Assembly (NCBI GenBank): GCA_016875795.1
Contig: VGOU01000002.1
Location: 1 to 39,894, forward strand
Source of the DNA: Chloroflexota bacterium
GTDB taxonomy: Bacteria; Chloroflexota; Limnocylindria; P2-11E
Length of the DNA stretch: 39,894 nt
Direction of reading: 5' to 3'
Shown: positions 2,165 to 19,190 of the stretch, piece after piece
Position numbering within the stretch: the first letter of the stretch is position 1
Layout of the letters: every line of letters starts with the position of its first letter
Made by a program: the position numbers and the translations under genes
The notes under the pieces: model-generated
Databases searched by the model: none
Seen by the model: the letters and a program-made list of their open reading frames with translations, nothing else
What the model was told of the DNA's origin: nothing

Positions 2165-2602
2165 ATGGCCCAGCGGAAGGTGGCGAGGAAGGCCACGAAG
2201 GCGAGCGGCGGGCTCACGCCGGAGGAGCGCGCCGCTCTGCGGGAGACGGTCCGCGAGCGTAAGGGCCCGAACGACGAGAGCGCGGTGCTCGCGGCGATCG
2301 CGAAGATGCCGCCCGCGGAGCGCGCCGTGGCGAAGCGGGTGCACGATCTCGTCAAGGCCGCCGCTCCGGGCCTGACGCCGAAGACCTGGTACGGGATGCC
2401 GGCGTACGCGAACACGGAGGGCAAGGTCGTCTGCTTCTTCCAGGACGCGAACAAGTTCAAGGCGCGCTACGCGACGCTCGGCTTCAGCGACACCGCGAGC
2501 CTCGACGACGGCGCGATGTGGCCGACGTCCTTCGCGCTCACGAAGCTGACCGCGGCCGAGGAGAAGCGCATCACCGACCTCGTGAGGAGAGCGGCGCGGT
2601 AG
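2165..2602 (+). CDS. DUF1801 (YdhG-like) domain protein
   Basis: 145 aa from ATG 2165. Sequence MAQRKVARK...[35 protein letters not shown]... matches the iron-chaperone-like DUF1801 pattern. The rest of the 456-aa tracked ORF is antisense to the dioxygenase. Confidence 0.7.
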
Positions 2603-2790
2603 CGGCCGCCCCGGGTCACCGCAGGATGACCCCGCGCGGAAGCGCCGTGCGGGTGACGCCGACGGGGCCTGATGCGACCGTCATCTCGGCCGTCCGCCGC
2701 GTGGCCGGATCGAGGACCGTGAACCGGCGGTCACGCCCCTCGCGAGGAGCGGGGCGACGGTGCCGGGCGGGGCGCGCCGGCGAGCTCCTG

Positions 2791-2818
2791 CCGCTCGCGA
2801 GCGCGCTCGCCGGAGCGG
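2791..2818 (-). terminator. GC-rich hairpin abutting the stop codon of the BrxA-like gene
   Basis: The sequence ccgctcgcgagcgcgctcgccggagcgg pairs ccgctc with gagcgg and gcgagc with gctcgc. It contains the perfect 14-bp palindrome gcgagcgcgctcgc. There is no U-tract. It lies between convergent genes. Confidence 0.35.
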
Positions 2819-3736
2819 TCAGTGGCCGTGCCTCCCTGGCACATGCGGACATCCGCCCGAAGAGACGCCGCCAGCGGCGTGCCTGCTCGCAGACACGCAA
2901 GCGCCAGGGTCGAAGAGAGCCGAGGGGACCGCGCTGCGGCTGCTGGCGAGGGAGGATTCGTGTGAGCGTCGTTCGGCGGATGCCTCGAGTTGGCGGAATG
3001 TCACTTCCGTCATGCCCGCCGCGGCGCGGTACGTGATCCACCCGAGGCGAGACGCCGCCCGCGCGAGCTCGCGCGCGTCGGTCTCCGGCACGTCGAGAAG
3101 GCGAGCGGGGAGCGTACGGAACAAGCCTGAGCCCGTCGCGTCGCACAAGTGACCCAGGTAGAGCGCGTATGCAGCCGCGGCCGGGGTCGAACGGGGATGG
3201 GCGCGCGTCTTCTTGCTGCGTCCACGCAGGTGCCCCGATTGTGTCCAGGAGCTCGCGACGTTCCGGCCGATCCGCGCGAGGACGTCCCTGGTGGACCGCC
3301 GCGGGAAGGCCCGACCCACCGCCTCCGAGAGCTCGGTGGCCGACACGGCCGAGCCGACGCCGGCCTCCAGGATGAGCTCAGCTGTCGCGCGCAGCAGCGG
3401 GTCGCGCGCGATGGCGCAGAGCAGCGCGACCAGAGGATGCGCTTCGACGTCGCTCGACCACATCCGTCGCAGGCTGGCGAAGACGGGCACGTCGCTCCGC
3501 AGCGCGTAGAGCTCGCGGAGGTGGCGCAGAGACTTCGCCCTCGTGGCGAGGGTCGATCTGCCGAGGACGTTCTCGGACACGACCGCCGCCGCGTAGTCCT
3601 CATACGTGGCATCGACCGGCGTGGCGCGGAGCAGAGTCTCCAGCTCGGCGAGCATGATCGCCCGGCTCGAGTGGGTGCCGGCGGGCTCATTGCTGAATCC
3701 CGCGGCGAGCGCGGAGGCGGGGACGTCCACGCGCAT
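2819..3736 (-). CDS. BrxA/DUF1819-like all-helical protein (orphan; no other BREX genes nearby)
   Basis: 305 aa. By-eye resemblance to BrxA: AVVSENVLGRSTLATRAKSLRHLRELY (BrxA-type ENxLxxxTxxxxKxxxxxxxxRL), HPLVALLCAIARDPLLRATAELIL, STRDVLARIGRNVASSWTQSGHLRGRSKKTR. The last ~55 aa are low-complexity with lower GC3, so the C-terminus is uncertain. Confidence 0.45.
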   Translation of the reverse strand: MRVDVPASALAAGFSNEPAGTHSSRAIMLAELETLLRATPVDATYEDYAAAVVSENVLGRSTLATRAKSLRHLRELYALRSDVPVFASLRRMWSSDVEAHPLVALLCAIARDPLLRATAELILEAGVGSAVSATELSEAVGRAFPRRSTRDVLARIGRNVASSWTQSGHLRGRSKKTRAHPRSTPAAAAYALYLGHLCDATGSGLFRTLPARLLDVPETDARELARAASRLGWITYRAAAGMTEVTFRQLEASAERRSHESSLASSRSAVPSALFDPGACVSASRHAAGGVSSGGCPHVPGRHGH

Positions 3737-3893
3737 CCGACGCCCGAGCGGCCGGCCCCGCGGCGGCTGACGGATCGCCGTCCGGGCCGGCCGCGAGCGC
3801 TCCGTCCTGACTCGTTCCCTTCCACTTCCCCTACCTGCGCGAGCCGGGTGCTCAGGATGATCGCGCAGCGCGGCGGTCGCGATCAGCCGCTCA

Positions 3894-3922
3894 CGTCCGG
3901 TCCTGTATCCAGGGACCGGACG
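3894..3922 (-). terminator. Perfect 10-bp-stem hairpin directly after the addA stop codon
   Basis: cgtccggtcc (3894-3903), a 9-nt loop, then ggaccggacg (3913-3922). The addA TAG is at 3923-3925. No U-tract follows (I-shaped terminator style). Confidence 0.4.
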
Positions 3923-6900
3923 CTAGGTTCCGGTCACCGCGCTCTTGCCGTCCGCGACGACGGCCGACCGTAGGGCCGCAAGTTCGCCTGCGAGATCCTC
4001 GATGCGATGCGTGACCCCGGCGGAAGCGAATACGAACTCGACCGCTCGCACCGGGATGTGGAGCGTCTCGGCCACCAGCCAGGCATACGCGGCGCCCTGC
4101 AGGCCGTAGGAGGCGGCGCGTTCGGGCACGTCGCTCGCGGTGATCTTGTCGGTCTTGTAGTCGACCACGACCGCGACGCCCGCATCCAGGTAGAGCAGGT
4201 CGATGAAACCCTCGAGGATCGCACCGTCGATCCGCGCTCCGACCGGGACCTCTCGCAGGTAGCGGCCAGAGGCGACCGCCCGCCGCACCGCTTCGCTCTC
4301 GCATGCAGACCGGACGAGGCGCTCGACCTCGTCCGCGCGCTCCGGGACCCCTTCGACCGCGGCCTGCACACGCGCGAGGCGCTCGACACCGTCGAGGCTG
4401 GCGAGATCGACCGCCTGGAGCACAGCGTGGACAGCACGGCCCAATGCAGTCGCGGCACGCCCGCGCGGGTAGCGCGGCTTTGCCTCTTCGTGGTCCCCGG
4501 ATACCTTCCCTCCCTCCTTCAGGCCGGTCGCGGTCAGAAGCCGCAAACCCGCAAGATCGTTGACCCTCTCTAGACGTGCGCGGGCCCATTCCTCTTCGCT
4601 CCGAGAATGAGCGCCAATGTCCTCGTGCGCGGTCCCGGCGATCTCGACCACGGGGGCCGGCAGGGGCTCGATCACCACCTTCCGCGCGAGTGCCAGCTTC
4701 TCGATCGTGGCCGCGAGCGCGACGGCTTGAGCGGTGGTTTCTCGCTCTTTCCGGTAGAGGCTGAGCACGAGATGGTCGCGTGCCCGTGTGGCGGCGACGT
4801 AGGAGAGGCGAAGGGTCTCCGCCTCGGCGAGCTGCCTCTCACGGCGTTCGAGCTCGGCGAAGTTCGCCGTCGTCCAGGTCCGCTCGTCGTCGTACCTGTT
4901 CTTGATGCCGACGGCGAGGGCATCGGCGACGCGGTCCGCCAGGACCATCGGAGGGCTGAACGCGCGGGTGGAACCCCATCCCGTGAGGATCACGACCGGG
5001 AACTCGAGGCCCTTCGAGCCGTGCACCGTCAGGACCCGCACCGCGTCCTCGTCCTCCTCCGCGAGCGCGGACGAGACGTCACGCCGCTGCTCGTTCTGCA
5101 GGCTCTCGATCCAGTCGACGAAGCCGCGCAGCGTCGGACTGCGGGCCACCGAGAACTTGCGGGCCCGATCGAGGACGTAGCGATAGCGCCGCCAGGACTC
5201 GCGCGGCCGGGCCTCGCCGAACGCGCCGGCCACGAGCATCCGCCGATCGAGCACCTTCTGGATGAGACCGGGAAGCGTCATCCGGTGCTTCGCCAAATGC
5301 AGCTCCCGGAGCACCGCGAGGGCACTCTGGATGCGTTCGACGGTCCCGTCTCCAGGGAACTCGAAGCTCCAGCGCCCTCCGCTCTCCACCCACTCGAGCA
5401 GCTCGACGTCGCTGATGCCGAACGCGACCGACCGGAGCGCGGCGATGAGCGCGACCTCGTCGGACGGATCGTCGATGGCGCGGAGACATGAGACGAGGTC
5501 GCGCACCTCCTGCGTTTGTACGATCAGCTCACCGCTCTCGATGCGATAGGGAACGTGCTCGCGATCGAACGCGCGCTCGAGCCGGCGGAGGTTCGTTCGC
5601 GAAGGGATGAGCACGGCGATGTCGCTGAATCGAGCCGGCCGCCGCTGACGCGCCGTCCCCTTGCCATCCGAGACCTCCCAGTCCTCGTCCACCGCGCGAC
5701 GGGCCGTGCGCGCGACGCCGACCGCCTCCGCTTCCCGCACCGCGGGCTGGTCCGCGTCCAGAGCGGCGCCGAACGTCCAGAGGCCCGTTGCGGTGTCGGC
5801 CGCTTCCGCGGCGAGCGGGATGTACGCGGGCTGCACGGCAAGCGCGTGCTGCATGTGCTGCGAGTAATGGGCGTTCACGAACTCGAGGATCCGCGGCACG
5901 GAGCGGAAGTTCTGGGTGAGCTCAAGAGAGCCACCCATCCTCGCCTCCACGGTCTGGTACAGGGCGATGTCCGCGCGGCGGAAGCGGTAGATGGACTGCT
6001 TCGGGTCGCCGACCACGCAGAGCTTCCCGGGCACGAGCGGAAGGGATCGCCAGTCGGTAGCGGTCGCGCCGACCTCGCTCGCGAGGTAGAAGGCGATCTC
6101 CGCCTGGAGCGGATCGGTGTCCTGGCACTCGTCGATGAAGACGCGCATCCAACGCTGCTGGGCGCGCCGGCGCACCTCGAGGTCATCACGGAGCAGGTCG
6201 CGGGCCCAGGTGAGCAGATCGTGGAACGTGGCGACGCCGCGACGCTTGCGATCGTCCGCGCTCTCGAGGACCGCGCGCCGCATCGAGCCGAGAAGCGACG
6301 TCAGGACGGCACGCTTGTGGGCCTCCAAGATGTCCCGCGCCCGCTGCTCGATATCCCGCAGGCCGCCCTTGAGCGTGCGGAGCGTCGCATCCGCTCCTGC
6401 GCCGTAGCGCTCCTTCCACTCCCCCATGTTGCCCGCGCTCTTACCTTCGATCCGCTCGACCAGGCGGGTCGCTTCGAGCGCCGGCTCCTCCGTCGACGCG
6501 GTCGCCAGTCGGTCCGCCACCACGCCGAGGCCGGTGAGAGTGCGTGCGATCGGCTCGGCAGACATCTCGGGAAGCAGCTCGCGTGTGAGTCGCTCGATCA
6601 TCCGCGCGATCGTCGCTGCGCCAGCGACCGCGTCCTCGGCTGCGGGGGCGGCGGGCCACGGCGGCGCCGGCGTCAGCAGGTCGTAGTGGTCGTGGAGACC
6701 GCGCATCAGCGTGGCCAGTTGGTCCGGAGCCAGACCGAGGAGCAGCGCGCGTCGCGCGACGTCGCGGTCCGGGCCCGAGCCGAGCGCATCGAAGTACGCC
6801 CGGAACTGCTCACCGAGCTCGGCGTCCTGCTGGATCTCATCGAGCATCTCGAAGTTGGGGGGCAGCCCGGCCTCGAGGGGGAATGTGCGCAAGAGCGATC

Positions 6901-7234
6901 CAGCGAACGCGTGAATGGTGTCGATGGCCGCTTCGTTGATCTCCCTCGCCGCCGCTGCGCACCGCTCGCGCGCCTCGGCGGACATGGGGCTGTCCACCGC
7001 CTCCTCGAGCCCTTCCCGGATGCGGGCGCGGAGCTCGGCGGCAGCCGCTTCGGTGAACGTGATCGCCACGATCTCGCGGGCGAGCAGCTTCTCCGCGGCG
7101 ACGAGCGCCACGACACGCGAGACGATCTCGCTCGTCTTGCCGGTACCAGCGCCGGCCTGGACGAAGAACGTCGTGTCGAGCTCGCTCCGGAGGCGCTCTC
7201 GCTGAGCTTGGTCGGCAAGCCCGGTGATCTTCAC
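3923..7234 (-). CDS. addA: AddA/RecB-type ATP-dependent helicase-nuclease (UvrD-like motor plus C-terminal PD-(D/E)XK nuclease)
   Basis: 1103 aa. Walker A is AGAGTGKT. Also present: ITFTEAAAAELRARI, DExQ box FIDECQDTDP, and motif VI YVAATRARDHL. The C-terminal nuclease motif is GFIDLLYLD...VVVDYKTD. The GTG start overlaps the addB stop (GTGA at 7231-7234). Confidence 0.85.
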   Translation of the reverse strand: MKITGLADQAQRERLRSELDTTFFVQAGAGTGKTSEIVSRVVALVAAEKLLAREIVAITFTEAAAAELRARIREGLEEAVDSPMSAEARERCAAAAREINEAAIDTIHAFAGSLLRTFPLEAGLPPNFEMLDEIQQDAELGEQFRAYFDALGSGPDRDVARRALLLGLAPDQLATLMRGLHDHYDLLTPAPPWPAAPAAEDAVAGAATIARMIERLTRELLPEMSAEPIARTLTGLGVVADRLATASTEEPALEATRLVERIEGKSAGNMGEWKERYGAGADATLRTLKGGLRDIEQRARDILEAHKRAVLTSLLGSMRRAVLESADDRKRRGVATFHDLLTWARDLLRDDLEVRRRAQQRWMRVFIDECQDTDPLQAEIAFYLASEVGATATDWRSLPLVPGKLCVVGDPKQSIYRFRRADIALYQTVEARMGGSLELTQNFRSVPRILEFVNAHYSQHMQHALAVQPAYIPLAAEAADTATGLWTFGAALDADQPAVREAEAVGVARTARRAVDEDWEVSDGKGTARQRRPARFSDIAVLIPSRTNLRRLERAFDREHVPYRIESGELIVQTQEVRDLVSCLRAIDDPSDEVALIAALRSVAFGISDVELLEWVESGGRWSFEFPGDGTVERIQSALAVLRELHLAKHRMTLPGLIQKVLDRRMLVAGAFGEARPRESWRRYRYVLDRARKFSVARSPTLRGFVDWIESLQNEQRRDVSSALAEEDEDAVRVLTVHGSKGLEFPVVILTGWGSTRAFSPPMVLADRVADALAVGIKNRYDDERTWTTANFAELERRERQLAEAETLRLSYVAATRARDHLVLSLYRKERETTAQAVALAATIEKLALARKVVIEPLPAPVVEIAGTAHEDIGAHSRSEEEWARARLERVNDLAGLRLLTATGLKEGGKVSGDHEEAKPRYPRGRAATALGRAVHAVLQAVDLASLDGVERLARVQAAVEGVPERADEVERLVRSACESEAVRRAVASGRYLREVPVGARIDGAILEGFIDLLYLDAGVAVVVDYKTDKITASDVPERAASYGLQGAAYAWLVAETLHIPVRAVEFVFASAGVTHRIEDLAGELAALRSAVVADGKSAVTGT

Positions 7235-10200
7235 GGCGCGACCTGCAGAGCGCGGTGGAGCCCCCTTGCCGGATCGGACGACTTCCGCGCGGCGAGCTGG
7301 TCTCGCGCCGAGGGGCAGATGCGGTCGTACTCGCAGTACACGCAGTTGTCCCAGCCGAAGACGCCGGGACGCATCGACTCCTCACCCGGCACCTGCGGGA
7401 ACGCCCCCGCGGCGACGCCGCGATGGATGATCTCGACGACCTCCGCCAGCCGCTGCTCGAGCTCGGGAGTGATCGCGACGTCCGTCATTTCGAACTTGTA
7501 GCGCGATACGACCTGCCAGTAGGCCGCCTCGACCAACGGCTCCGCTACGCCGAGAGCACGCAGCTGCTCCTTCACCACCCGCCCGTACACCGCGAGTTGC
7601 AGCTGAGTGCCCGCGACGAGAGGGTCCGCCTCGAGCGCCTTCCGGTCGACCCGCCCGGTCTTGTAGTCGAAGAGCCGGGCGCGCTCAGGGCGTTCCCGGT
7701 CGGGAGCCACGTCGACCCGGTCCAGCCTGCCCCGGAAACGCACCTCCGCTCCGCTTGGGGCGCTGATCGCGCCGGCGGGCCACTCCCCCGCGGGACCGAA
7801 GGCCTGCTCGAATCGCAGCGGGACCCAGCCCCCGCTCGCGCGCATCTCCTGGTCCTTCAGGAGGAGTGTGTGAAGGTCGCGAAGGATCGACGCCCTCTCG
7901 TTCTCCCAGGCGAGCGCGTACCCGGATCGTCCACGCGCTTCGATCAGCGCGAACTCTTCCGCCGCGATGCGGTCCAGCCGCGCGTGATCCTGCGGCGTAT
8001 ACGTCTCGTTCCGACCCGGTCGGCCACTCGTCGCGAGATCCTGGAAGAACCGCTGGAGGATCCGATGGATGAGGCTCCCCTTGACCGCTGGGATGATCGA
8101 CCAAGCTTCGTCATCCTCGGGCTGGGAGGTCTCTTCCACGAAGAGCACCCGGTCGAGGAAGTAGCGGAAAGGACACAGCGCCCACTGCTCGAGGGCCGAA
8201 GGCGAGACGGCCGTGCGCGTCAGACCCCCGCGCAGCCGGGCTGACGACGTGGCCACGGCCTCAACGTTCCCGTCGAACTCGGTCAGGGCGGGCGAGTTCC
8301 GAGCACGCTGAACGTGGATGATCCGACTGAGCGGAAGATCCACGCGACGAGCCACCGCGGCGTGCTCAAGCGAACCGCGCATCGACGCGGTGCGTGCCTC
8401 GGCCACGCGACGCTCCGCGAGCTCCAGGTGCACCGGCCCGTTCGCGAGTCCCTCGTCGGGTGATCGCACGCGGAAGAACGGGCCGTGCGAGGTCATGTTG
8501 CGCAGTTGCGCGGCGCTCACCCGCCGCCCCTCGAGATCGCTCGCGATCTCGAGCAGCCATGGCGCGGCGTACAGCGGTCGTAGCTCCGAGTCCCACGCCG
8601 GAGCACTGAGACGGAGAGTTCCTCCATCCGCCGCGGCCGAGGCCGCGGCAGCGCGGAAGGCGCTCCGCTCTTCGACGAGACGATCCGCTGAGACACCGGG
8701 CGGGTCGCCTTCAGGGAACACGGGATCGGGCGGTGCCTTCGATGGGAAAGCCCCCTCGGCCATGCCGACGATGTGCACGCGGTCGAAGGCCACTCCCCGA
8801 GCTGCGGCCACCTGGCCGATGACGACTCCGACGCCGATCTGCCCATTCGGCCGGCGCTGGCCTTCGAGGGCGGCCTCGAGGGCGCGTCGGAACACCGGAA
8901 GCTCGACCGTTCCATCGATGATCGCCGCGCCGCCGAGGCCGTCGATGACGTCATCGACAAGGTCCGCGGCCTGTCGCTCGTCGTCCTCGGCGTGCGGCGG
9001 GACGAAGCGCCGCCGAAGCGCTTTGGCCCACGCGACATATGCGGACCACGTCTGTTCGGTCGGAGGCCTCACGGCATCGGCGACCCCAGAAAGCTCAGAG
9101 GCGATGGCGGCCGCGGTCGCGGCCTCGCGCTGGCGGAAGCGTTGCTGCCCCTCGCTGATGCCGTCTTCCGAAGCCGCGAGACGGTGCTCCTCAGCGAGGC
9201 GCTCGAGGCGCTCCTTCCACTGCGCGGGTCCGCGTACGACCCGCGCACTTCGCGACAGTCGATTCCATTCGGCGAAGGAGGGCTCCGTGTAGCCAGCCGG
9301 CGGCAGCGTGCTCCGCCACTCAAGCACGGCGAGTCGTGCGAAGTCAGCATCGGCCAGAGCGAGCAGGCGCAGAAGTCCCTGCGCCACGAAGCTCTCGCTC
9401 AGCGGCCGCCCCTCGAGCGCGGCGAAAGGCAGGCCCGCAGACCGCAGGACCTCTGGGACGAGAACGGCATACGGCGCGCGCGAGCGCCAGAGCACTCCGA
9501 TCCGGTTGAGCGGGATGCCAGCATCGAGGTCGGCGAGGATGAGTCGGCACACCGCCCGGATCTCCTCGTCTGCGGTCGGTGCGACGATCACCTGCCGGAG
9601 TGCCGCAGGTACCTCCGAACTCGCGTGAGCCACGTCGCCGAGTCGGAGGTCGGAACAGATCAGCGTTCTCTCCTTGTCGGCGAGCGGGTCACCCGTATCG
9701 GCGATGGCCACCTCCACCGTCGCGAGCTCGCCGATAGCGCGGATGAGCCGCGCTGCGGTGAGCGGCAGCACCGTTGGCAGGTACACGAACACGTCCCCAA
9801 GATCGCGTGTCGAGAGGCCGCCAATGCGTATCTCATCCGTCGCCGCGTCGACGCCCGCGCGGTCGTCGTAGAAGAGGTGGGATCCTAGGAGCTCTTCGTA
9901 CTGCCGGTACGCGGCGAAGGAGGCTCTCGCCATCCGGCCTCGCGCCACCCACGAATCGAGGTCGGCACTGGAAACCTCGCGTTCCCTCAGCCTCCCGAAT
10001 AGCTCACGCAGCGTGTCAACGAGCGCGGGATGCTCGGCGACAGCGCCGAATCCTTCGCCGATCGCCCGGACCGAGCGGCGGATGAGAGCGTCCTCGGCGA
10101 CCGCAGTGAGAGGGCGCAGTCCCGACCGCGCGAGGCGGACCGAGCCGAGGCGCTCCGCCAACCGCGCGAGGATCTCGAAACGCACGTTCGCATAGCCCTC

Positions 10201-10359
10201 CTGGGCGAGCTCGCGCCGAAGCCACAGCCCGACGTAGTGGTTCGGGACGATGACCGTGACGGGGTGGAGAGGATCGTCCTTCTGGGCGCCGCGAATCCGG
10301 CCAAACAGCCACTGCACCGAGGCCTTGCCGGGACGGACGGCGATCCCACGAAGCGTCAT
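7231..10359 (-). CDS. addB: AddB-type helicase-nuclease subunit (degenerate motor, PD-(D/E)XK nuclease with Fe-S cysteine cluster)
   Basis: 1042 aa. No canonical Walker A is visible at the N-terminus (only GIAVRPGKAS). The nuclease motif is RGRLDRVDV...LFDYKTGR. Cysteines are arranged as WALCPFRYF ... NCVYCEYDRIC, i.e. C...CX2CX5C as in AddB iron-sulfur clusters. Confidence 0.8.
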   Translation of the reverse strand: MTLRGIAVRPGKASVQWLFGRIRGAQKDDPLHPVTVIVPNHYVGLWLRRELAQEGYANVRFEILARLAERLGSVRLARSGLRPLTAVAEDALIRRSVRAIGEGFGAVAEHPALVDTLRELFGRLREREVSSADLDSWVARGRMARASFAAYRQYEELLGSHLFYDDRAGVDAATDEIRIGGLSTRDLGDVFVYLPTVLPLTAARLIRAIGELATVEVAIADTGDPLADKERTLICSDLRLGDVAHASSEVPAALRQVIVAPTADEEIRAVCRLILADLDAGIPLNRIGVLWRSRAPYAVLVPEVLRSAGLPFAALEGRPLSESFVAQGLLRLLALADADFARLAVLEWRSTLPPAGYTEPSFAEWNRLSRSARVVRGPAQWKERLERLAEEHRLAASEDGISEGQQRFRQREAATAAAIASELSGVADAVRPPTEQTWSAYVAWAKALRRRFVPPHAEDDERQAADLVDDVIDGLGGAAIIDGTVELPVFRRALEAALEGQRRPNGQIGVGVVIGQVAAARGVAFDRVHIVGMAEGAFPSKAPPDPVFPEGDPPGVSADRLVEERSAFRAAAASAAADGGTLRLSAPAWDSELRPLYAAPWLLEIASDLEGRRVSAAQLRNMTSHGPFFRVRSPDEGLANGPVHLELAERRVAEARTASMRGSLEHAAVARRVDLPLSRIIHVQRARNSPALTEFDGNVEAVATSSARLRGGLTRTAVSPSALEQWALCPFRYFLDRVLFVEETSQPEDDEAWSIIPAVKGSLIHRILQRFFQDLATSGRPGRNETYTPQDHARLDRIAAEEFALIEARGRSGYALAWENERASILRDLHTLLLKDQEMRASGGWVPLRFEQAFGPAGEWPAGAISAPSGAEVRFRGRLDRVDVAPDRERPERARLFDYKTGRVDRKALEADPLVAGTQLQLAVYGRVVKEQLRALGVAEPLVEAAYWQVVSRYKFEMTDVAITPELEQRLAEVVEIIHRGVAAGAFPQVPGEESMRPGVFGWDNCVYCEYDRICPSARDQLAARKSSDPARGLHRALQVAP

Positions 10360-10530
10360 ATCGATGCGAGGCGTGGCGCGAATGTCCCGGTGTCACGCGC
10401 GGAGCCGCTCGCGACCATCGCTTGTAGCCCCGTGCTCCTCAGTTGTGACCTGGAAGGATCGCCGGAAGAGATGCGCCTCGTAAACGCCATTTGCTCCTCC
10501 GCGAGCGCGCGCAGCTGCTCCCGGAGCAGG

Positions 10531-11198
10531 TCAGGCGCCGGCCGGGAGGACCGTCGCAACGAACTTGTGGCAGTAGCCACGGAATGGAGCACCCAGGCTG
10601 ACTACGAGGAAGACCGCGGCGTGCTCGCCAACGCCGCCGAAACTGCGCGGGCGTCGCTGACCAACAGGCACGGAAGCGAACCTCCCATGCCACCGCGGGT
10701 CTGTGACCGGAAGCGAGTGCGTGCTGCCGCAAGTGTGAATGCTGCTCGAACACGCTTCCTTCCTGTGACGGTCGCCTCAATGATCCACTCCACGTTCGTC
10801 GGAGCGACGGCGAGCAACGAAGCTCGCGCTGGGCTCGCGTCGAATCGCACCGCAGCAATGCGCGTCGAAGCGTCGCCAAACAGGTCGGACCCTTCGAAGC
10901 GAAGCCTCCGTAGCAGCCGAGGGGTCTCCAGCCGAGGCAGGCGACCGACTGTGACCACGCGATCGGTCATGAGTTCCCAATTCTCTGGCTGATAGCGGTC
11001 GGGGGTTTGTCCCGTCACTTCCACTCGGACCACGTCGAATGGTCCGAAGCCGCGACATGAGTCTTCACTCAGCGGGCCGTTGCCCCTAGGCACCGGACGC
11101 ACCCACGTCGCCGGATCGTCGGTGCGGACTCCCGCGACGCAGCGTCCACCCTCGCGCCAGGAGTTCGCAAGGCAGACGAACTCAAGCTGCTGTGTCAT
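10531..11198 (-). pseudogene. Dual OB-fold domain family gene interrupted by a 1-nt frameshift
   Basis: ATG at 11198 gives MTQQLEFVCLANSWREGGRCVAGV... through ...RKRVRAAFTL (codon 10731-10733). The family-typical C-terminus CGSTHSLPVTDPRWHG...FLVVSLGAPFRGYCHKFVATVLPAGA* continues in the -1 frame to TGA 10531-10533. One extra T would restore a 222-aa ORF. Confidence 0.6.
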
Positions 11199-11488
11199 AG
11201 GTGGACAACATCGGCGTCGCCCCACAGTCGCGATAGATGCTCCGCGAGGAGGCGTCGATGGCACCGCTCCGGTCCGGCCTCGCTGCACAGAAGCACGGTC
11301 CTCTCTGTGAGGTCGGACGGCTTGACGATGGTCGCGACATCGCGTTCTGCCATGAGCCTCAAGAACCTTTCCGCGTACTCGTCCCATGCGATTCGAACCT
11401 CCAATCGCCTGATCCAGAGGCTGGGGAACGTTCTTTCGTGCATCCGATCCGATCCGAGCACGAAGTACGACGGTGAGCGGTCCCACAT
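11195..11488 (-). pseudogene. DUF488 family protein, 5'-truncated (C-terminal ~97 codons retained)
   Basis: The sequence ...IAWDEYAERFLRLMAERD...RTVLLCSEAGPERCHRRLLAEHLSRLWG matches the DUF488 C-terminal half (LLC-x-E...CHR). The N-terminal half of the domain is absent and replaced by the ISL3 fragment. The stop overlaps the dual-OB start as ATGA (11195-11198). Confidence 0.55.
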
Positions 11489-11504
11489 CGACAGGCGATC
11501 GGAG

Positions 11505-11781
11505 GAACGTGCGCCTCGGTGAAGCTCCTGCCGCAGGCGGGGCACTCGTAGCGTCGCTTGCGCCAGCGCAGCCAGGTCGGCCGGCAGTGGATGGGCAGGT
11601 CGCGCACCAGGACCATGGGCCGCTCCTCGGGCACGAGCGCTGCGGCGCCGCACTCGGGACAGAGCCCGCCCTTCGCCTCGCTCTCGACCTCGACCTCGAG
11701 ACCGGCGAGCTCGCCCGGACCGCAGCCGATGACGCGCCGGCCTGGGATGTTGAGCGGGACCGGGATACAGTCGTCCTTCAT
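11505..11781 (-). pseudogene. ISL3-family transposase N-terminal (zf-ISL3) fragment
   Basis: MKDDCIPVPLNIPGRRVIGC...LEVEVESEAKGGLCPECGAAALVPEERPMVLVRDLPIHCRPTWLRWRKRRYECPACGRSFTEAH carries the CxxC...CxxC zinc-finger N-terminus of ISL3 transposases. No DDE domain follows. Confidence 0.6.
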
Positions 11782-11908
11782 CCGTCGACCCCTTCCTCGC
11801 CACTGAGTGAGATCGCGGCGAGTCTAGGAAGGCCGGCGGACGCTTCTTCTTTCCTCGCTATCCCCGCTCATTCGCGATGAACCCGGTCTTCGAGCGCCGT
11901 TGACGATT

Positions 11909-11935
11909 GGGGCTCCTCGCTAATTCGTGTGGGTA
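11909..11935. repeat. ISL3 left terminal inverted repeat
   Basis: ggggctcctcgctaattcgtgtgggta. Its reverse complement differs from 13243-13269 at two positions. Confidence 0.8.
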
Positions 11936-12001
11936 CGCTGAGCTCCGCAGGGTGGCCGGGGAGCCAGGGGCTGCCGCTGCGGAGGCTCCTGCGCGCGCGA
12001 G

Positions 12002-13300
12002 GTGCAGCAGCTCTTCGAGAAGGCCCTCGGCCTCGTCCCGCCGTGGAAGGTCACCCGCTCTGAGTCCGATCCCAAGGCCCAGCGCCTCGACCTGTTCCTC
12101 GACTTCGAGCGGGGCGCGCGGTTCCGCTGTCCCGCGTGCGGAGCTGAAGGCTGTCCCGTTCACGACACGGAGGACGAGGAGTGGCGGCACCTCAACTTCA
12201 TGCAGTACCCGCTGTACCTCCACGCGCGGGTGCCGCGCGTCCGCTGCGAGAAGGATGGCGTGCGTCAGATCGATCTCCCCTGGGCCCGTCCCGGCTCGGG
12301 CTTCAGCCACCTGTTCGAGGCCTTCGTCATGACCCTCGCGGCGGAGATGCCGGTGAAGGCGATCGCCGACCTGCTCGGCGAGCACGACACGCGCATCTGG
12401 CGCGTCGTCCACTTCCACGTCGAGCGGGCCCGGGCCAGGGAGGACTTCTCCAAGGTCCGCCACGTCGGGGTGGATGAGACCAGCCGCCGGCGGGGCCAGC
12501 GCTACGCGTCGCTCCTCTGCGACCTCGAGCGCGCGAGGCTCCTCTTCGCCACGCCGGGCAAGGACGGCGGCGCGTTCGGCCGCTTCAAGGACGACCTCGT
12601 CGCCCACCGCGGTGAGCCGGCGCAGCTCGTCGAGCTGTGCATGGACATGTCCCCCGCGTACGTCTCGGGGGCGACGGAGCACTTCGCGGGCGTGCCCATC
12701 ACCTTCGACCGCTACCACCTCATGCAGGACCTCAACTTCGCCCTCGACCAGGTCCGCCGCTCCGAGCAGGCCTCCCGGGCGCTCCCCGCGCGGCACCTGT
12801 GGAGCCGCCGCCGCCGAACGCAGCTTCCGACGCTCAAGAAGAGCCGCTACCTCTGGCTGAGGAACCCCGCGAAGCTGAGCGACCGCCAGCGCGCCGAGGT
12901 CGAGCGGCTCTCGGCGGTCCACGACAGGACCGGCAGGTCGTACCGCATCGAGCTCGCCTTCCAGGAGCTGTACACGCAGTGCCCCGAGGAGGCCGAGGCC
13001 TACCCGCGGCGCTGGTACGCCTGGGCCATCCGCTCGCGGCTGATCCCCATCGTCGAGTTCGCCCGCACGGTCAAGCAGCTCTGGGACGGCGTGCTGCGCT
13101 GTTTCACCAGCAAGGTGAGCGACGGCATCCTCGAGGCCATCGGCAGCCTCGTGCAGGCGGCGAAGCGTCGGGCTCGCGGCTACCGGACGACCGAGAACCT
13201 CATCGTCATCGCCTCCCTCGTCGCGGGGAAGCTGGACCTTGCTACCCACACGAGTTGGCGAGGAGCCCCGATTAGCCAAGACCCTACCGGGCGGCTTTAA
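12002..13300 (+). CDS. ISL3 family transposase
   Basis: 432 aa with a GTG start. Contains LGLVPPWKV..., FRCPACG...HDTEDEEWRHLNF...PRVRCEKDGVRQIDLPWARPGSGFSHLFE, a DDE region (VGVDETS...MDMSPAY...) and the C-terminal ARGYRTTENLIVIASLVAGKLDL. The ORF runs 31 nt beyond the right IR. Confidence 0.85.
   Translation: MQQLFEKALGLVPPWKVTRSESDPKAQRLDLFLDFERGARFRCPACGAEGCPVHDTEDEEWRHLNFMQYPLYLHARVPRVRCEKDGVRQIDLPWARPGSGFSHLFEAFVMTLAAEMPVKAIADLLGEHDTRIWRVVHFHVERARAREDFSKVRHVGVDETSRRRGQRYASLLCDLERARLLFATPGKDGGAFGRFKDDLVAHRGEPAQLVELCMDMSPAYVSGATEHFAGVPITFDRYHLMQDLNFALDQVRRSEQASRALPARHLWSRRRRTQLPTLKKSRYLWLRNPAKLSDRQRAEVERLSAVHDRTGRSYRIELAFQELYTQCPEEAEAYPRRWYAWAIRSRLIPIVEFARTVKQLWDGVLRCFTSKVSDGILEAIGSLVQAAKRRARGYRTTENLIVIASLVAGKLDLATHTSWRGAPISQDPTGRL
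13243..13269. repeat. ISL3 right terminal inverted repeat
   Basis: tacccacacgagttggcgaggagcccc. A perfect-IR version would read AAT TAG in the transposase frame where this copy reads AGT TGG. Confidence 0.8.
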
Positions 13301-13336: not shown

Positions 13337-15451
13337 GTGTACAGGGTCTGCATCGATGTAGGCGGGACGTTCACCGACTGTCTCGTGCTCGACGGCCACG
13401 GCCAGGTCCGGCAGTTCAAGTCGCCGACGACGCCCGCGGATGCGTCGGTCGGCTTCCTGAGCGCCGTCGCCAAGGCGGCGCGCGGCTACGGGCAGGACAC
13501 CAAGACCTTCCTCGGCTCGGTCGAGCTCCTCGTGCACGGGACGACGCTGGCGACGAACACCTTGATCAACACCAGCGGCGCGAAGACCGGCATGATCACG
13601 ACGAAGGGCTTCCGCGATGTCGTCGAGACGCGCCGCGGATACAAGAACGTCCGAACGTCGATGTACAACGTCTTCGTCCCACCGTATCGGCCGCTCGTCC
13701 CGCGACGCCTGCGTCTCGAGGCCGAGGAGCGCTCGCTCTACACCGGCGAAGTGGCGACCGCCCTGCGCGAGGACGACGTCCGCGCGGCAGCGCGGAAGCT
13801 GCGCGCCGAGGGCGTTGAGAGCGTCGCGATCTGCTTCCTCCATTCGTACGCGCAGCCCGCGAATGAACGACGCGCGACGGAGCTCGCCAGGGCGGAGATG
13901 CCTGGGACCTACGTGACCTCATCGCATGAGATCCTTCCCGTCTGGCGGGAGTTCGAGCGCTTCTCAACGACCGCGGTGTCCGCGTACACCGGTCCGGTCG
14001 TCGAGCGCTATCTGCGGAGCCTGGAAGCCCGGCTCGCGGCTTCGGGCTTCCGAGGGCAGCTCCTCCTCATGCTGTCGAGCGGCGTCGTCGAGACGGTCGA
14101 CTATTGCGTGCCCCGCGTGGTGTATCTGATCGGTTCGGGGCCTGCGGCCGCACCGGCGGCCGCGCTGCACGCCGGTGCCGCCTCCGGGCGACGTGATCTC
14201 CTCTCCGTCGACATGGGCGGGACCTCGTTCGACGTATGCATGATCCGCGGTGGCGAGATCCCGACCACGACCGAGGGATGGGTGCAGGACGAGCGCGTCG
14301 CCATCAAGATGGTGGACGTCCACTCGGCCGGGGCGGGGGGCGGATCGATCGCGTGGATCGACTCCATCGGCCTCCTCCGGGTCGGACCTCGGTCCGCCGG
14401 GGGCGATCCCGGCCCGGCCTGCTATGGCAAGGGCCTCGACCCCACGGTGACTGACGCCGACCTCCTCCTCGGATACGTACCCGCGGACTTCTTCCTCGGC
14501 GGGGACATCAAGCTCGACGCTACGCGCGCGGAGGCCGCGATGATGCGCGTCGGCACGCCGCTGGGCATGACCGCGCGCGACGCGGCGCAGGCCGTCTTCA
14601 CCGCGGTGAACTCGTTCATGGCCGATCAGATCACGGAGGTCGCGACGATGGGCGGCCACGACGTGAGGGACTTCGCGCTCGTCGGCGGCGGCGGCGCGGG
14701 TCCCGTCCATGTCTCGTTCATCGCGGAGCTGCTGGGGATCCCGACGGTCATCGTCCCCAGTGTCGCTGCTACGTACTCGGCGTTCGGGATGCTCGCGATG
14801 GACATCGGCCGCCACTACTCGCGCTCGTACGTCGTGCGTGCGAAGTCGCTGGACCTCGAGCGGGTCCGCGCTCTGTATCGAGAGATGGAGCAGCAGGCCG
14901 TCGAGGGCCTCGGCGCGATGGGGATCGCGCGCGACGCGGTCGCCTTCACGCGAACGGCCGACCTCAGATACGTCGGTCAATTCCACGAGGTCGAGGTCGA
15001 GGTCCCGAGCGGGGAGCTCAGCGCCGCCGCGATGGAGCGCGCGATCGAGAACTTCCACGCCCGGCACAAGGCGCTCTACACGTTCAACATGCCCTGGCAG
15101 GCCGTCGAGTTCCTGACCTTCCACCAGAAGGCGACCGTGCCGCGACCGCCGTTCAGCCTCAGGCGCGTCGAGCCGGGTGGCAGGGACGCGTCGGCCGCGG
15201 TGAAGCGTCGGCGGACCGCGTGGTTCGGCGGCGTGCCGATCGAGACGACCGTCTTCGACGGCTCGAAGCTCCGTGCCGGCAATGTGATCGCCGGTCCGGC
15301 GCTCATCGAGGAGACGACGACGACGGTCGTCGTGCCCCCGTCCTTCACCGTCGTCGTCGACGAGCAGCGGAGCTACGTGCTCACGCTCGGCGAGCGGGCG
15401 GGGACGCGTGGCCGCACAGAGACGCGGGCGGTCGAAGGGGTCTCCCGATGA
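13337..15451 (+). CDS. hyuA: Hydantoinase/oxoprolinase family A subunit (HyuA-like, ATP-dependent)
   Basis: 704 aa. The GTG start is preceded by GGGGGAG 7 nt upstream. The N-terminus YRVCIDVGGTFTDCLV and later DMGGTSFDV are characteristic. Confidence 0.85.
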   Translation: MYRVCIDVGGTFTDCLVLDGHGQVRQFKSPTTPADASVGFLSAVAKAARGYGQDTKTFLGSVELLVHGTTLATNTLINTSGAKTGMITTKGFRDVVETRRGYKNVRTSMYNVFVPPYRPLVPRRLRLEAEERSLYTGEVATALREDDVRAAARKLRAEGVESVAICFLHSYAQPANERRATELARAEMPGTYVTSSHEILPVWREFERFSTTAVSAYTGPVVERYLRSLEARLAASGFRGQLLLMLSSGVVETVDYCVPRVVYLIGSGPAAAPAAALHAGAASGRRDLLSVDMGGTSFDVCMIRGGEIPTTTEGWVQDERVAIKMVDVHSAGAGGGSIAWIDSIGLLRVGPRSAGGDPGPACYGKGLDPTVTDADLLLGYVPADFFLGGDIKLDATRAEAAMMRVGTPLGMTARDAAQAVFTAVNSFMADQITEVATMGGHDVRDFALVGGGGAGPVHVSFIAELLGIPTVIVPSVAATYSAFGMLAMDIGRHYSRSYVVRAKSLDLERVRALYREMEQQAVEGLGAMGIARDAVAFTRTADLRYVGQFHEVEVEVPSGELSAAAMERAIENFHARHKALYTFNMPWQAVEFLTFHQKATVPRPPFSLRRVEPGGRDASAAVKRRRTAWFGGVPIETTVFDGSKLRAGNVIAGPALIEETTTTVVVPPSFTVVVDEQRSYVLTLGERAGTRGRTETRAVEGVSR

Positions 15452-17199
15452 CGGGAAGGACCGTCGACCCGATCACGCTGTCCACGGTCTGGCACGCCTT
15501 CCAGAGCATGGGCCGCGAGATGCGCCACGTGATCGACCGCACCGCACAGAACTACCTCATCGCCCAGCTGCACGACATGGCCGCCGGGATCTGGGACGTG
15601 AAGGCTCGGACGATCGCGGTGCCCGAGGGTCCCACCTCGATGTTCCTGTCGCAGCACTTCACGGTGGAGTACGTCCTCGAGAAGTTCGGGGCCGACCTAC
15701 GTCCAGGCGACGTGATCCTCACGAACGATCCGTACAAGGGGTACTGCAATCACCTGCCGGACTGGGGGTTCTTCCGGCCGATCTTCTATAAGGGTGAGCT
15801 CCTGTTCATCGCCCTGACGCGAGGGCACCAGCTCGACACAGGCGGCTCGTTCCCTGGCGGGTACTTCCCGAATGGGTACGACATCCACGCCGAGGGGATC
15901 ATGATCCCGCCGATCAAGGTCGTTGACGAGGGTCGCGAGCGCAGCGACGTCCTCGAGCTCATCTGGAACAACGTGCGGTGGCCCGAAGGCGTACGGATCG
16001 ACAACTACGCGCTCATGGCCGCGCTCAAGGTCTGCGACGACCGGATCGTCGCTCTCCTCGACAAGTACGGACGGAGCACCGTCCTCGAGTGCGTGGACGA
16101 GATGCTCGATCGGATGGAGCGGGCCGTTCGCGATCAGATCGCGCGCGTTCCGGAAGGGACCTACTACGGCGAATCGGCCTCCGACGACGACGGCACCGTT
16201 CTCGACGAGCCGGTGTGGGTCCGGTGCGAGGCGACCTTCAAGGGCGACGAGATGGTGCTCGACTTCTCGAAGAGCGACGCGCAGCGGAAGGGATTCGTGA
16301 ACTGCACCTACTCATCGACCTACAGCCGAGCGGTCGCGGGCAGCTTCCTCTTCTTCGACCCGGCCCTCGCGCAGTTCCACAACGGCGGGAGCATGCGGCC
16401 GATCTCGGTGGTCGCGCCCCCCGGCACCGTCGTGCACGCGGTGTATCCCGCCACCGTCGGAGGCTCGCCGGTGAACGTCGGGACCCAGGTCCTCGAGGCG
16501 ACCTGCGCCGCGCTGTCGAAGGCGATGCCCGACCGCGCGGTCGCCGGCTGGGGACGCCGCCGCGGCCATTACATCTTCGGGATCGACCCCCGGAGCGGCG
16601 ACCGGTACGTCCAGACGACCACCGACGCCGACGGCGGCTCAGGTGCGGTCGCGGGGTTCGATGGGTTCGAGGGCGCGCTGGGCATGTCCGGCCTCGGATC
16701 GATCACGCGCGGCAACGTTGAGGAGGTGGAGATCCGCTTCCCGTGGCGCGCCGTGAAGTGGCACTTCGTGCCTGACATGGCCGGCGCCGGCCGCTGGCGC
16801 GGAGGCAGCGGGACGCTGTGGGAGTGGCAGAACGTCGGCGGTGACGTCGGCGTGGCCACCGGGTCCTCGGACGGGGATCTCACGCAGCCCCCCGGCGCGG
16901 CGAGCGGCCATCCCGGACCGCTCTCCCGCATGTACATCCGACGTGGCGATGAGGTCCTCGCGGCCCGCACGCATCGGATGATCCAGGTCAAGACCGGCGA
17001 GGTCCTGGGCAAGGTGAGCGGCGGCGGCGGCGGCGTCGGCGATCCGGCCGAGCGCGATCCACGAGCCGTCCTCGAGGACGTCCTGGACGAGAAGATCACG
17101 GTCGCGCACGCGCGAGAGGTGTACCGGGTCGCGATCGATCCGGCTGACCTCCGGATCGACGAGCCGGGCACCTCGGCGCTGCGCGTGCGCCCCGACTGA
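15448..17199 (+). CDS. hyuB: Hydantoinase/oxoprolinase family B subunit (HyuB-like)
   Basis: 583 aa from ATG 15448, overlapping the hyuA stop as ATGA. MTGRTVDPITLSTVWHAFQSMGREM..., ...TNDPYKG..HLPDW... and ...GGGGVGDPAERDP are typical HyuB motifs. Confidence 0.85.
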   Translation: MTGRTVDPITLSTVWHAFQSMGREMRHVIDRTAQNYLIAQLHDMAAGIWDVKARTIAVPEGPTSMFLSQHFTVEYVLEKFGADLRPGDVILTNDPYKGYCNHLPDWGFFRPIFYKGELLFIALTRGHQLDTGGSFPGGYFPNGYDIHAEGIMIPPIKVVDEGRERSDVLELIWNNVRWPEGVRIDNYALMAALKVCDDRIVALLDKYGRSTVLECVDEMLDRMERAVRDQIARVPEGTYYGESASDDDGTVLDEPVWVRCEATFKGDEMVLDFSKSDAQRKGFVNCTYSSTYSRAVAGSFLFFDPALAQFHNGGSMRPISVVAPPGTVVHAVYPATVGGSPVNVGTQVLEATCAALSKAMPDRAVAGWGRRRGHYIFGIDPRSGDRYVQTTTDADGGSGAVAGFDGFEGALGMSGLGSITRGNVEEVEIRFPWRAVKWHFVPDMAGAGRWRGGSGTLWEWQNVGGDVGVATGSSDGDLTQPPGAASGHPGPLSRMYIRRGDEVLAARTHRMIQVKTGEVLGKVSGGGGGVGDPAERDPRAVLEDVLDEKITVAHAREVYRVAIDPADLRIDEPGTSALRVRPD

Positions 17200-17256
17200 C
17201 GGAGGAAGGCGACGCCCGCCCCGAACGACACAGACCTCCTCGCGCCGCTCGAGCGC

Positions 17257-19177: not shown

Positions 19178-19190
19178 CGCGCAGGATCTC

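Follow-up and report, generated by a model that had tools for sequence, protein, structure and literature searches.

A probable decayed defence island around an AddAB-type helicase-nuclease gene pair in a Chloroflexota contig

The locus described here is probably what remains of a defence island decayed around a conserved pair of repair genes, with three modules on one strand that are unrelated and do not make up a composite system (Table 1). The window, by which we mean the whole stretch of 39,894 nt that was analysed, carries an addB-addA pair with a truncated brxA gene on one side and a broken DUF488/dual-OB pair on the other. Gene identities, breakpoints, the frameshift and the contexts in relatives were read from the DNA and its homologues, while the order of the decay events is one that we infer. 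A preliminary description had placed these five genes in one minus-strand block and had proposed that AddAB, BrxA, DUF488 and the dual-OB protein act as an undescribed composite system. All five reading frames were found where it had placed them, its gene identities agree with Pfam, PADLOC, NCBIfam and fold comparisons, and we concur that the region has an accessory or conflict character. The composite system itself found no support, as the flanks are a BREX remnant and a broken copy of the candidate defence cassette PDC-M45. Both of these defence modules are non-functional relics, and since addB-addA is intact while both of its neighbours are dead, the pair is independent of them.

Five genes that lie close together on one strand with two start/stop overlaps, and that all belong to families annotated as nucleic-acid-related or defence-related, might be taken for a single five-gene DNA-surveillance system (DUF488, dual-OB, AddB, AddA and BrxA). 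We regard this as extremely improbable. The two overlaps reported earlier are present (ATGA at 11198-11195, joining the DUF488 stop to the dual-OB start, and GTGA at 7234-7231, joining the addB stop to the addA start), but both fall within cassettes and none between them; a 171-nt gap, a 186-nt gap and a hairpin part the three modules. Three of the five genes are broken or truncated, and the one frameshift and one truncation listed in the preliminary description are both real, the former lying in dual-OB and the latter in DUF488. The five-gene combination occurred in none of 97 other addB-addA loci that we surveyed (in 47 of these, 5 kb or more of sequence lies upstream of addB), and in other loci BrxA is part of one well-defined cassette and the DUF488/DuOB pair of another. 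Read as three modules, the locus is an example of defence-island decay, in which a single truncated gene is left of BREX, and an insertion sequence (IS) and a frameshift have wrecked a candidate cassette, while the repair pair stays intact. It also cautions that co-directional neighbours need not be one system.

Table 1. Coordinates of the features discussed, in window positions
Feature	Position	Strand	Description
Unrelated read-through tail	2819-2983	minus	codons ~252-305, 54 codons, probably made by deletion
brxA remnant	2819-3736	minus	305-aa ORF; PADLOC, fold, homologue synteny
BrxA-homologous part	2984-3736	minus	codons 1 to ~251, long-form (tripartite-type) BrxA
addA-brxA intergenic region	3737-3922	minus	186 nt; hairpin and motif GAAGTGGAAGG
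addA	3923-7234	minus	UvrD-type SF1 helicase and C-terminal RecB-family nuclease, full length, 1103 aa
addB	7231-10359	minus	inactive helicase-like N-terminal region and C-terminal PD-(D/E)XK nuclease, full length, 1042 aa
dual-OB (DuOB / PDC-M45A) pseudogene	10531-11198	minus	Pfam PF22557 DuOB 5.5e-22; PADLOC PDC-M45A 1.6e-16
DUF488-N3a / PDC-M45C 3' remnant	11195-11401	minus	PADLOC PDC-M45C 2.2e-19; Pfam DUF488-N3a 5e-7
ISL3-family transposase N-terminal fragment	11497-11781	minus	Pfam Zn_ribbon_ISL3 1.6e-12; zinc-ribbon part only
Intact ISL3-family IS	11906-13300	plus	transposase 12002-13300; DDE_Tnp_ISL3 1.2e-55, HTH, Zn-ribbon (Pfam)

The 305-aa ORF beside addA is, to judge from PADLOC, its predicted fold and the gene order around its homologues, a genuine long-form BrxA. 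Comparison with DUF1819/BrxA profiles gave a divided answer. The PADLOC BrxA model PDLC02450 matched with an E-value of 3.7e-81, its positions 10-256 (of 259) covering residues 11-257, but the Pfam BrxA/DUF1819 family PF08849 did not match the product even at E <= 10. A family profile of the window BrxA gave E 0.18 against the PDB BrxA sequence, and hhalign of this family against a PF08849-positive BrxA gave a probability of 0.3%. Since these two comparisons gave no sequence link to canonical BrxA, a structure model was needed to make it. The AlphaFold model of the product has a pLDDT of 95.1, and its top Foldseek match in the PDB was BrxA (7zge_A; E 9e-4, probability 1.00, TM 0.66 over 194 columns), with 3bhw as a further match. 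A long 'tripartite' BrxA variant has been described (PMC12839542), and the 305-aa product matches it.

Homologues of this BrxA with 50-78% identity head ordinary type-1 BREX operons in seven loci on five different contigs (L001, L002/3, L004-6, L039 and L040). The gene order in these loci is brxA-brxB-brxC-pglX-pglZ-brxL, and brxA thus stands at the head of the operon directly before brxB, which it does not do in the window. A tblastn search with BrxB, BrxC, PglX, PglZ and BrxL found none of the five proteins in the whole window (best E 0.11), in agreement with the earlier remark that the first four are absent. With type-1 BREX the window therefore shares a 3'-truncated brxA alone; the other five core genes are absent and there is no BREX system. 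The nearest relative, L039, keeps more of the arrangement: addA is followed by a gap and then by brxA, brxB and brxC. Its DNA is 75% identical to that of the window along 2.5 kb that begin within addA, span the spacer and reach into brxA. This identity ends about 12-13 codons before the brxA stop, at window position 2984, where L039 runs on into brxB and brxC, so that brxA keeps about 251 of its ~263 codons. With homology to L039 breaking off in the 3'-terminal part of brxA, the 'orphan' gene is a deletion remnant; on this alignment it appears to be the 3'-truncated leftover first gene of a deleted BREX locus. A type-1 BREX operon would once have stood downstream of addA, and a deletion with one end near 2984 would have removed the last ~12-13 brxA codons together with everything from brxB to brxL. 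The same event would have joined brxA to unrelated sequence and so given it its foreign tail of 54 codons. On the far side of this presumed deletion the window has DUF1801/LigB.

Some residual function of brxA is possible, given that most of its codons are kept and that the ORF is identical in four assemblies. That the truncated gene was retained as a stand-alone DNA-binding regulator after the loss of BREX is nevertheless very unlikely in our opinion. Most of the predicted HTH modules lie within the retained codons and the model is a confident one, but the last BrxA helix is partly replaced by the unrelated tail. The identity of the ORF across the four assemblies, which would fit such retention, may mean just that the deletion is recent. 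A regulatory role of BrxA is left open in PMC12839542; among the sampled homologue contexts, however, no solitary brxA was seen.

The spacer between addA and brxA contains the hairpin and has the 186-nt length attributed to it before. The hairpin lies directly after the addA stop (3922-3894), with a 10-bp stem and a folding energy of -25.2 kcal/mol (z = -3.98; no shuffled sequence folded as well). No T-run is present at this hairpin. Alignment of the window and L039 spacers showed that they have in common a short motif, GAAGTGGAAGG, at 3828-3818; the hairpin itself is not conserved there. A consensus scan of positions 2500-12000 returned no promoter-like or terminator-like sites, as expected at 70% GC.

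On the other side of the gene pair, the DUF488 and dual-OB genes had been presented as uncharacterised members of a new locus. The pair is in fact already catalogued: PDC-M45 is a three-family cassette (DUF488, DUF488-N3a and DuOB) in Payne et al. (bioRxiv 10.1101/2024.01.29.577857), a candidate defence system predicted because it is found embedded in loci for BREX, DISARM or type I RM. By sequence comparison, the window pair appears to be the wreck of this self-contained candidate, corresponding to M45C plus M45A in the same order and with the same ATGA-type overlap as in another locus, L038, where the full B-C-A cassette is recognised by PADLOC (2.5e-53, 3.7e-58 and 2.6e-32). In a further locus (L037) the cassette adjoins an intact BREX. 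The window copy differs from L038 in that M45B is missing, M45C is cut down and M45A is frameshifted. No significant PDC-M45B match was found in the window (E 0.008 over 19 residues, within the DUF488 remnant). The M45C remnant covers model positions 80-144 of 145, meaning that about the last 65 codons are left and about the first 79 are missing; residues 80-139 of the DUF488-N3a homologue in L038 align to 11395-11216. The dual-OB gene carries one frameshift near 10722-10727, seen with homologues P0170-P0174 as an alignment in two frames; with P0170, one frame (11189-10719) covers residues 3-159 and a second (10728-10546) covers residues 157-217. Read literally, the ORF stops at 10602; once the frame is repaired, it ends with a TGA at 10533-10531. 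The reported gap of 171 nt between dual-OB and addB accordingly holds after frameshift repair, but the literal stop leaves 242 nt. Three further assemblies (L034-L036), which come from different samples, have the same sequence with its decay, frameshift included, so an assembly error is an unlikely cause and was rejected. GC3 of the DUF488/dual-OB copy is 0.68-0.72, which is atypical for the window; that of addA (0.86), addB (0.81) and brxA (0.88) is within the range of the other window genes. A look at the literature on DuOB and DUF488 yielded nothing useful, and a ParB-CTPase preprint mentions a DUF488 fusion only.

Next to this wreck lies ISL3-family material. The ORF containing the transposase fragment runs from 11781 to 11359, of which the ISL3-like part extends to ~11497 as estimated by eye from the translation. 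The fragment abuts the DUF488 remnant and is not a second copy of the intact ISL3 element beside it. The latter has inverted repeats of 30 nt (11906-11935 and 13243-13272, 90% complementary), which were not found elsewhere in the window. The block had been called bordered by IS debris: this is true of the DUF488 side, but the brxA border showed no IS-like sequence. We suggest that a DUF488 / DUF488-N3a / DuOB cassette would once have stood upstream of addB, that ISL3 activity would have taken away its 5' half, and that a 1-nt-type frameshift would have broken the DuOB gene.

The addB-addA pair between these relics is intact and belongs to a divergent lineage of AddAB-type helicase-nucleases. 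AddA has an SF1A helicase core (Pfam UvrD-helicase 7.1e-48, UvrD_C 9.7e-23) with the ATPase/helicase motifs GAGTGKT, DECQD, VGDPKQSIY, HGSKGLEF and YVAATRA in its translation, and its C-terminal RecB-family PD-(D/E)XK nuclease (PDDEXK_1 2.1e-11, residues 926-1069) shows the motifs IDLLY...VVDYKTD...QGAAY. The AddB nuclease domain (PDDEXK_1 1.2e-34, residues 718-1016) has the catalytic residues D883, D898-Y899-K900, Q921 and Y925 (D...D-x-K, Q-x3-Y), all invariant in 20 homologues. A predicted Fe-S signature places one cysteine before the nuclease domain (C729) and three after it (C1006, C1009 and C1015); the first three of these cysteines are invariant in the 20 homologues, and C1015 is invariant in the closest 10 and reaches at least 90% conservation across the full set. 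The N-terminal region of AddB gave weak Exonuc_V_gamma and UvrD_C traces in Pfam, and a conserved Walker A motif is absent from it, the homologue consensus being VRPGPxA. Among PDB sequences AddB had no match, while the best match of AddA was B. subtilis AddA (3u44_A, 1.2e-41), followed by RecB (4e-29) and AdnB (3e-12); as the AdnB match is far weaker than the other two, we rejected an AdnAB label. The NCBIfam equivalog cut-offs were not reached by AddA (259.9 vs 707.65 bits for TIGR02785 and 227.2 vs 860.75 for TIGR02784) or by AddB (49.7 vs 903.7 bits), which sets this AddAB apart as a divergent lineage outside the curated equivalog families.

The pair most resembles AddAB of the B. subtilis type (PDB 3U44/3U4Q). 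There too addB precedes addA as one of two genes, AddA has the same make-up of a UvrD-like motor and a C-terminal RecB-family nuclease, and AddB is alike in its inactive helicase-like N-terminal region, PD-(D/E)XK nuclease and four-cysteine Fe-S signature, but the sequence similarity is remote and the equivalog cut-offs are far off. With mycobacterial AdnAB and with RecBCD the pair shares the general job of a motor plus nuclease at double-strand ends; unlike AdnA, however, the AddB-like subunit has no active UvrD-type motor, and unlike RecBCD the locus has no RecD. From motifs only, and by analogy with B. subtilis AddAB, we infer that the enzyme would bind double-strand DNA ends, that the AddA motor would unwind them and that the AddA and AddB nucleases would cut the two strands. 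Its role would probably be recombinational repair, with linear foreign DNA degraded incidentally. The lineage has been seen in metagenomes and metagenome-assembled genomes (MAGs) only, including Acidimicrobiia and Ca. Limnocylindria, and the named relatives nearest to AddB come from Ca. Limnocylindria (a MAG; 46%), Conexibacter (a fragment of a MAG) and Acidimicrobiia (~31%). At E <= 1e-30 the AddB family comprises about 1,100 cluster representatives. For the genome scan with AddB we aligned the 10 closest homologues, the 20-sequence alignment being too divergent for that use. A plasmid search with AddB matched its nuclease domain alone, on haloarchaeal plasmids at 27%, and found no close plasmid-borne copy.

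In every other surveyed locus long enough to show the order (74 of the 97) addA follows addB, and the flanks vary. No DuOB or DUF488 gene was found near addB-addA in any of the 97. Of the two adjacencies in the window, that of addA with brxA recurs in one close relative (L039), whereas that of the DUF488/dual-OB pair with addB recurs nowhere. For the close lineages (AddB at least 41% identical) we scored defence genes within 10 kb of addBA. Defence systems of varied types adjoin AddAB in seven of the nine closest lineages. BREX stands beside addBA in the window and L039; a second BREX, with a different BrxA type, divergent orientation and a WYL/WCX BrxR-like gene, is found in L041/42/46. Other neighbours are DUF1156 plus DUF499 (L007), a 'BREX-related' system by the definition of PMC12839542, PsyrT/PsyrA with a UvrD helicase (L008), Tiamat TmtA (L045; PADLOC E = 0) and Mrr (L044). 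No clear defence neighbours were seen in L010 and L111. The more distant L009 and L083 also have defence-type genes flanking addBA. In deeper clades more than 30 loci lie in stable metabolic neighbourhoods: in Acidimicrobiia addBA comes after 2OG oxygenases and before MarR, PLP enzymes and acyl-CoA ligase, and in a second deeper group it stands between NiFe hydrogenase and EamA on one side and beta-eliminating lyase on the other.

The recurrence of defence genes beside this poorly sampled AddAB lineage (Acidimicrobiia, Chloroflexota-like and other high-GC bacteria), next to BREX as well as other systems, may reflect more than neighbourhood. We consider it unlikely that the clade is a defence-island module or a partner of neighbours such as BREX, in which case AddAB would processively degrade DNA marked or nicked by the neighbour, the addA-brxA adjacency would be functional and the window copy alone would have lost its partner. 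The seven close lineages with defence genes are compatible with such a role, but neighbour type, orientation and distance are all variable among them, which is easier to reconcile with an island or hotspot than with a fixed partnership. L009 and L083 extend the pattern outwards, but L010 and L111 break it and the metabolic contexts of the deeper clades run against it. Likewise, the window and L039 share conserved DNA in the addA-brxA spacer, yet a strong hairpin separates the two genes in the window, where addBA is intact though BREX is gone. In addition, no PADLOC system model covers addB-addA, close plasmid-borne copies were not found, and the words AddA, AddB, RecB and UvrD are absent from a BREX survey of about 21,500 assemblies. 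It is likewise quite improbable that the clade goes beyond repair either as a recurrent degradative component of defence islands, serving nuclease-poor systems (BREX and its DUF499/DUF1156 relatives), or by offering, in its flanks, a dedicated hotspot where defence cargo integrates, with the window as a decayed addBA-BREX partnership that is intact in L039-like relatives. Should the recurrence reflect function, it would bear on the question of what degrades phage DNA during BREX-type immunity; should it mark a hotspot, it would provide a handle for finding defence islands in these uncultured groups. Finally, SbcD/SbcC-like genes adjoin addBA in L009 and L044, a layout that resembles addB-addA-sbcD-sbcC of B. 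subtilis.

At this locus an intact, divergent AddAB helicase-nuclease pair lies between what is left of a type-1 BREX operon and of a PDC-M45 cassette, and every component of the locus belongs to a known kind. The minus-strand reading frames listed in the preliminary description are found between 2819 and 11803. Both start/stop overlaps (ATGA and GTGA) are present, as are the gap of 186 nt separating addA from brxA and the hairpin 3' of addA; the description of the sequence features holds with three small corrections. The G+C content of the window is ~70%, and outside the block its content is ordinary chromosomal, the remaining genes encoding hydantoinase, 2-oxoacid dehydrogenase E1 subunits, transporters, amidohydrolases and a tyrosine recombinase.

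Features of the block and its surroundings in the window
Feature	Position	Strand	Matches and remarks
Spacer motif GAAGTGGAAGG	3818-3828	-	between addA and brxA
Hairpin	3922-3894		-25.2 kcal/mol, z = -4
AddA-like, UvrD helicase + nuclease	3923-7234, 1103 aa	-	UvrD-helicase 7e-48; UvrD_C 1e-22; PDDEXK_1 2e-11
AddB-like, C-terminal nuclease	7231-10359, 1042 aa	-	PDDEXK_1 1.2e-34
dual-OB	ORF 10602-11486, 294 aa	-	PF22557 DuOB 5.5e-22; PADLOC PDC-M45A 1.6e-16; domain from ATG at 11198
DUF488	ORF 11195-11803, 202 aa	-	PF04343, PF22751; only last ~65 codons DUF488
ISL3 transposase N-terminal fragment	ORF 11781-11359	-	upstream of DUF488 remnant
Intact ISL3	transposase 12002-13300	+	30-nt inverted repeats 11906-11935, 13243-13272
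Hydantoinase A/B pair, then two tandem 2-oxoacid dehydrogenase E1 alpha/beta pairs	13337-21193	+	directly adjoins intact ISL3
Tyrosine recombinase	38933-39823	+	Phage_integrase + SAM-like N-terminal domain; far contig end, distant from block

All helicase motifs and the nuclease motif are present in the AddA translation, whose closest solved structure is B. subtilis AddA (1.2e-41), followed by RecB (4e-29), whereas AdnB is far from it (3e-12). AddB carries the invariant nuclease residues D883, DYK898-900, Q921 and Y925 together with the AddB-type cysteine quartet (C729, C1006, C1009, C1015), and alignment of its homologues gave no conserved Walker A. Both proteins score below the NCBIfam equivalog cut-offs, and the pair is therefore a divergent lineage of AddAB. 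Exhaustive searching for the AddB family gave 1163 cluster representatives (E <= 1e-30), including many full-length ones of 31-47% identity; where the source is named, it is a MAG of Acidimicrobiia, Ca. Limnocylindria or Conexibacter. As a pair, addB and addA are intact and stand on their own.

The gene beyond addA had been described as a BrxA-like orphan. Its 305-aa ORF found no match with the Pfam BrxA/DUF1819 model even at E <= 10, nor in an NCBIfam search, but in PADLOC the BrxA model PDLC02450 covers its residues 11-257 with E 3.7e-81. A structure model of the product (pLDDT 95.1, built on 23 homologues) has BrxA 7ZGE as its best solved-structure match (E 9e-4, TM 0.66) and the DUF1819 structure 3BHW as the next, and an additional winged helix at its C-terminus agrees with the 'tripartite' BrxA variants of PMC12839542. 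By profile, fold and fit to these variants the protein is BrxA, a family with 1842 relatives at E <= 1e-5, mostly of 249-262 aa.

Homologues of brxA head ordinary type-1 BREX operons in every context fetched (L001, where the operon spans brxA through brxL, L002/L003, L004-L006, L040 and L039). The decisive case is L039, the closest brxA relative (77-78% identity), where the order is addA, a 178-nt gap, brxA, brxB and the start of brxC; its addA product shares 76% identity with residues 582-1094 of window AddA, and L039 positions 1-2513 match window 5492-2984 with 75% DNA identity, intergenic spacer included. This homology ends ~13 codons ahead of the L039 brxA stop. Past the break, the final 54 codons of the window ORF are unrelated sequence; next come a DUF1801 gene, in convergent orientation, and a gene for a LigB-type dioxygenase. 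As first described, BrxB, BrxC, PglX and PglZ are undetectable across the whole window, and so is BrxL. Together, the L039 gene order, the homology break and the lack of other BREX genes mark the 'orphan' as the deletion leftover of a BREX operon once directly downstream of addA. The spacer motif, common to the window and L039, is possibly a BREX promoter or operator element. In the BREX locus L040, a gene encoding 245 aa or more, without Pfam match (2-739), overlaps the brxA start and may be an upstream BREX accessory gene, so far unrecognised.

On the other flank, the DUF488 and dual-OB pair is a broken PDC-M45 cassette, all three parts damaged or missing. Payne et al. catalogued this three-family cassette among PDC systems, untested candidates whose prediction rests on the position of their genes inside BREX, DISARM or type I RM loci (bioRxiv 10.1101/2024.01.29.577857). 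A full cassette, in L038, comprises wHTH, DUF488 (193 aa), DUF488-N3a (145 aa) and DuOB (221 aa), the last three being PADLOC PDC-M45B, M45C and M45A (2.5e-53, 3.7e-58 and 2.6e-32); in L037 the cassette lies next to an intact BREX, on the brxL side. M45B is absent from the window. The decay noted earlier is evident in the other two: M45C (PADLOC 2.2e-19, model positions 80-144 of 145) is without its first ~79 codons and abuts the ISL3 fragment, and M45A, whose homologues are ~220 aa long, is frameshifted near 10722-10727, homologues aligning down to 10719 in one frame and over 10728-10546 in another. The frame-repaired stop is at 10533-10531, and the reported 171-nt gap exists in the repaired frame, though not as a literal reading. 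Cassette GC3 (0.68-0.72) is atypical for the contig. IS debris, which in the preliminary description borders the block, was found on this side, as the ISL3 fragment and the intact ISL3, but not on the other. Only the zinc-ribbon motif aligns between the two; the fragment is not a copy, and therefore two different ISL3 elements hit the site.

Our addBA sample comprised 97 other loci with an addB homologue, plus L111. Wherever a locus among the 97 was long enough to show order, addA follows addB (74/74). A DuOB or DUF488 gene occurs in none of the 97; in 47 of them the sequence upstream of addB extends for 5 kb or more. With brxA read as a BREX remnant, DUF488/DuOB as a PDC-M45 relic, and addBA elsewhere lacking DuOB and DUF488, we reject the proposal that the five genes form one composite system. 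Two deeper clades keep addBA in conserved metabolic synteny, which looks like a housekeeping location. SbcD-like (Metallophos) and SbcC-like (AAA_23) genes directly adjoin addBA in two unrelated lineages (L009:17074-20585; L044:2146-5015, where the SbcC-like gene overlaps the addB start), an adjacency that resembles the B. subtilis add-sbc region.

The chief interest of the locus is a recurrent adjacency of AddAB and defence. Among close lineages (AddB >= 41% identity, n=9) the flanks are variable, and defence-type in 7/9: BREX in the window and L039; in L041/L042/L046 a second BREX with another BrxA type (PF08849-positive), in divergent orientation beside a WYL/WCX regulator, an HNH protein and a ResIII helicase; DUF1156 and DUF499 in L007; PsyrTA and a UvrD helicase in L008; Tiamat TmtA in L045; and Mrr in L044. 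No clear defence genes were found near addBA in L010 or L111. This pattern fits either a defence-island hotspot beside a conserved addBA pair or a real functional association with the neighbouring systems. Dependence of addBA on its neighbours is argued against by the window pair, intact after both neighbours died, by the varying type and orientation of the neighbours, and by the hairpin between addA and brxA. A survey of BREX across about 21,500 assemblies reported auxiliary nucleases near BREX; the words AddA, AddB, RecB and UvrD are absent from it. Type III Res and TerB/BrxC_BrxD ATPases also occur among the flanks in a set including L083 and L009. Finally, two lineages have a VWA-domain gene upstream of addB, within a few kb (L041:8074-9447, L111:1182-2447), that of L041 adjoining a TY-Chap3 chaperone-like gene and a WYL/WCX regulator.
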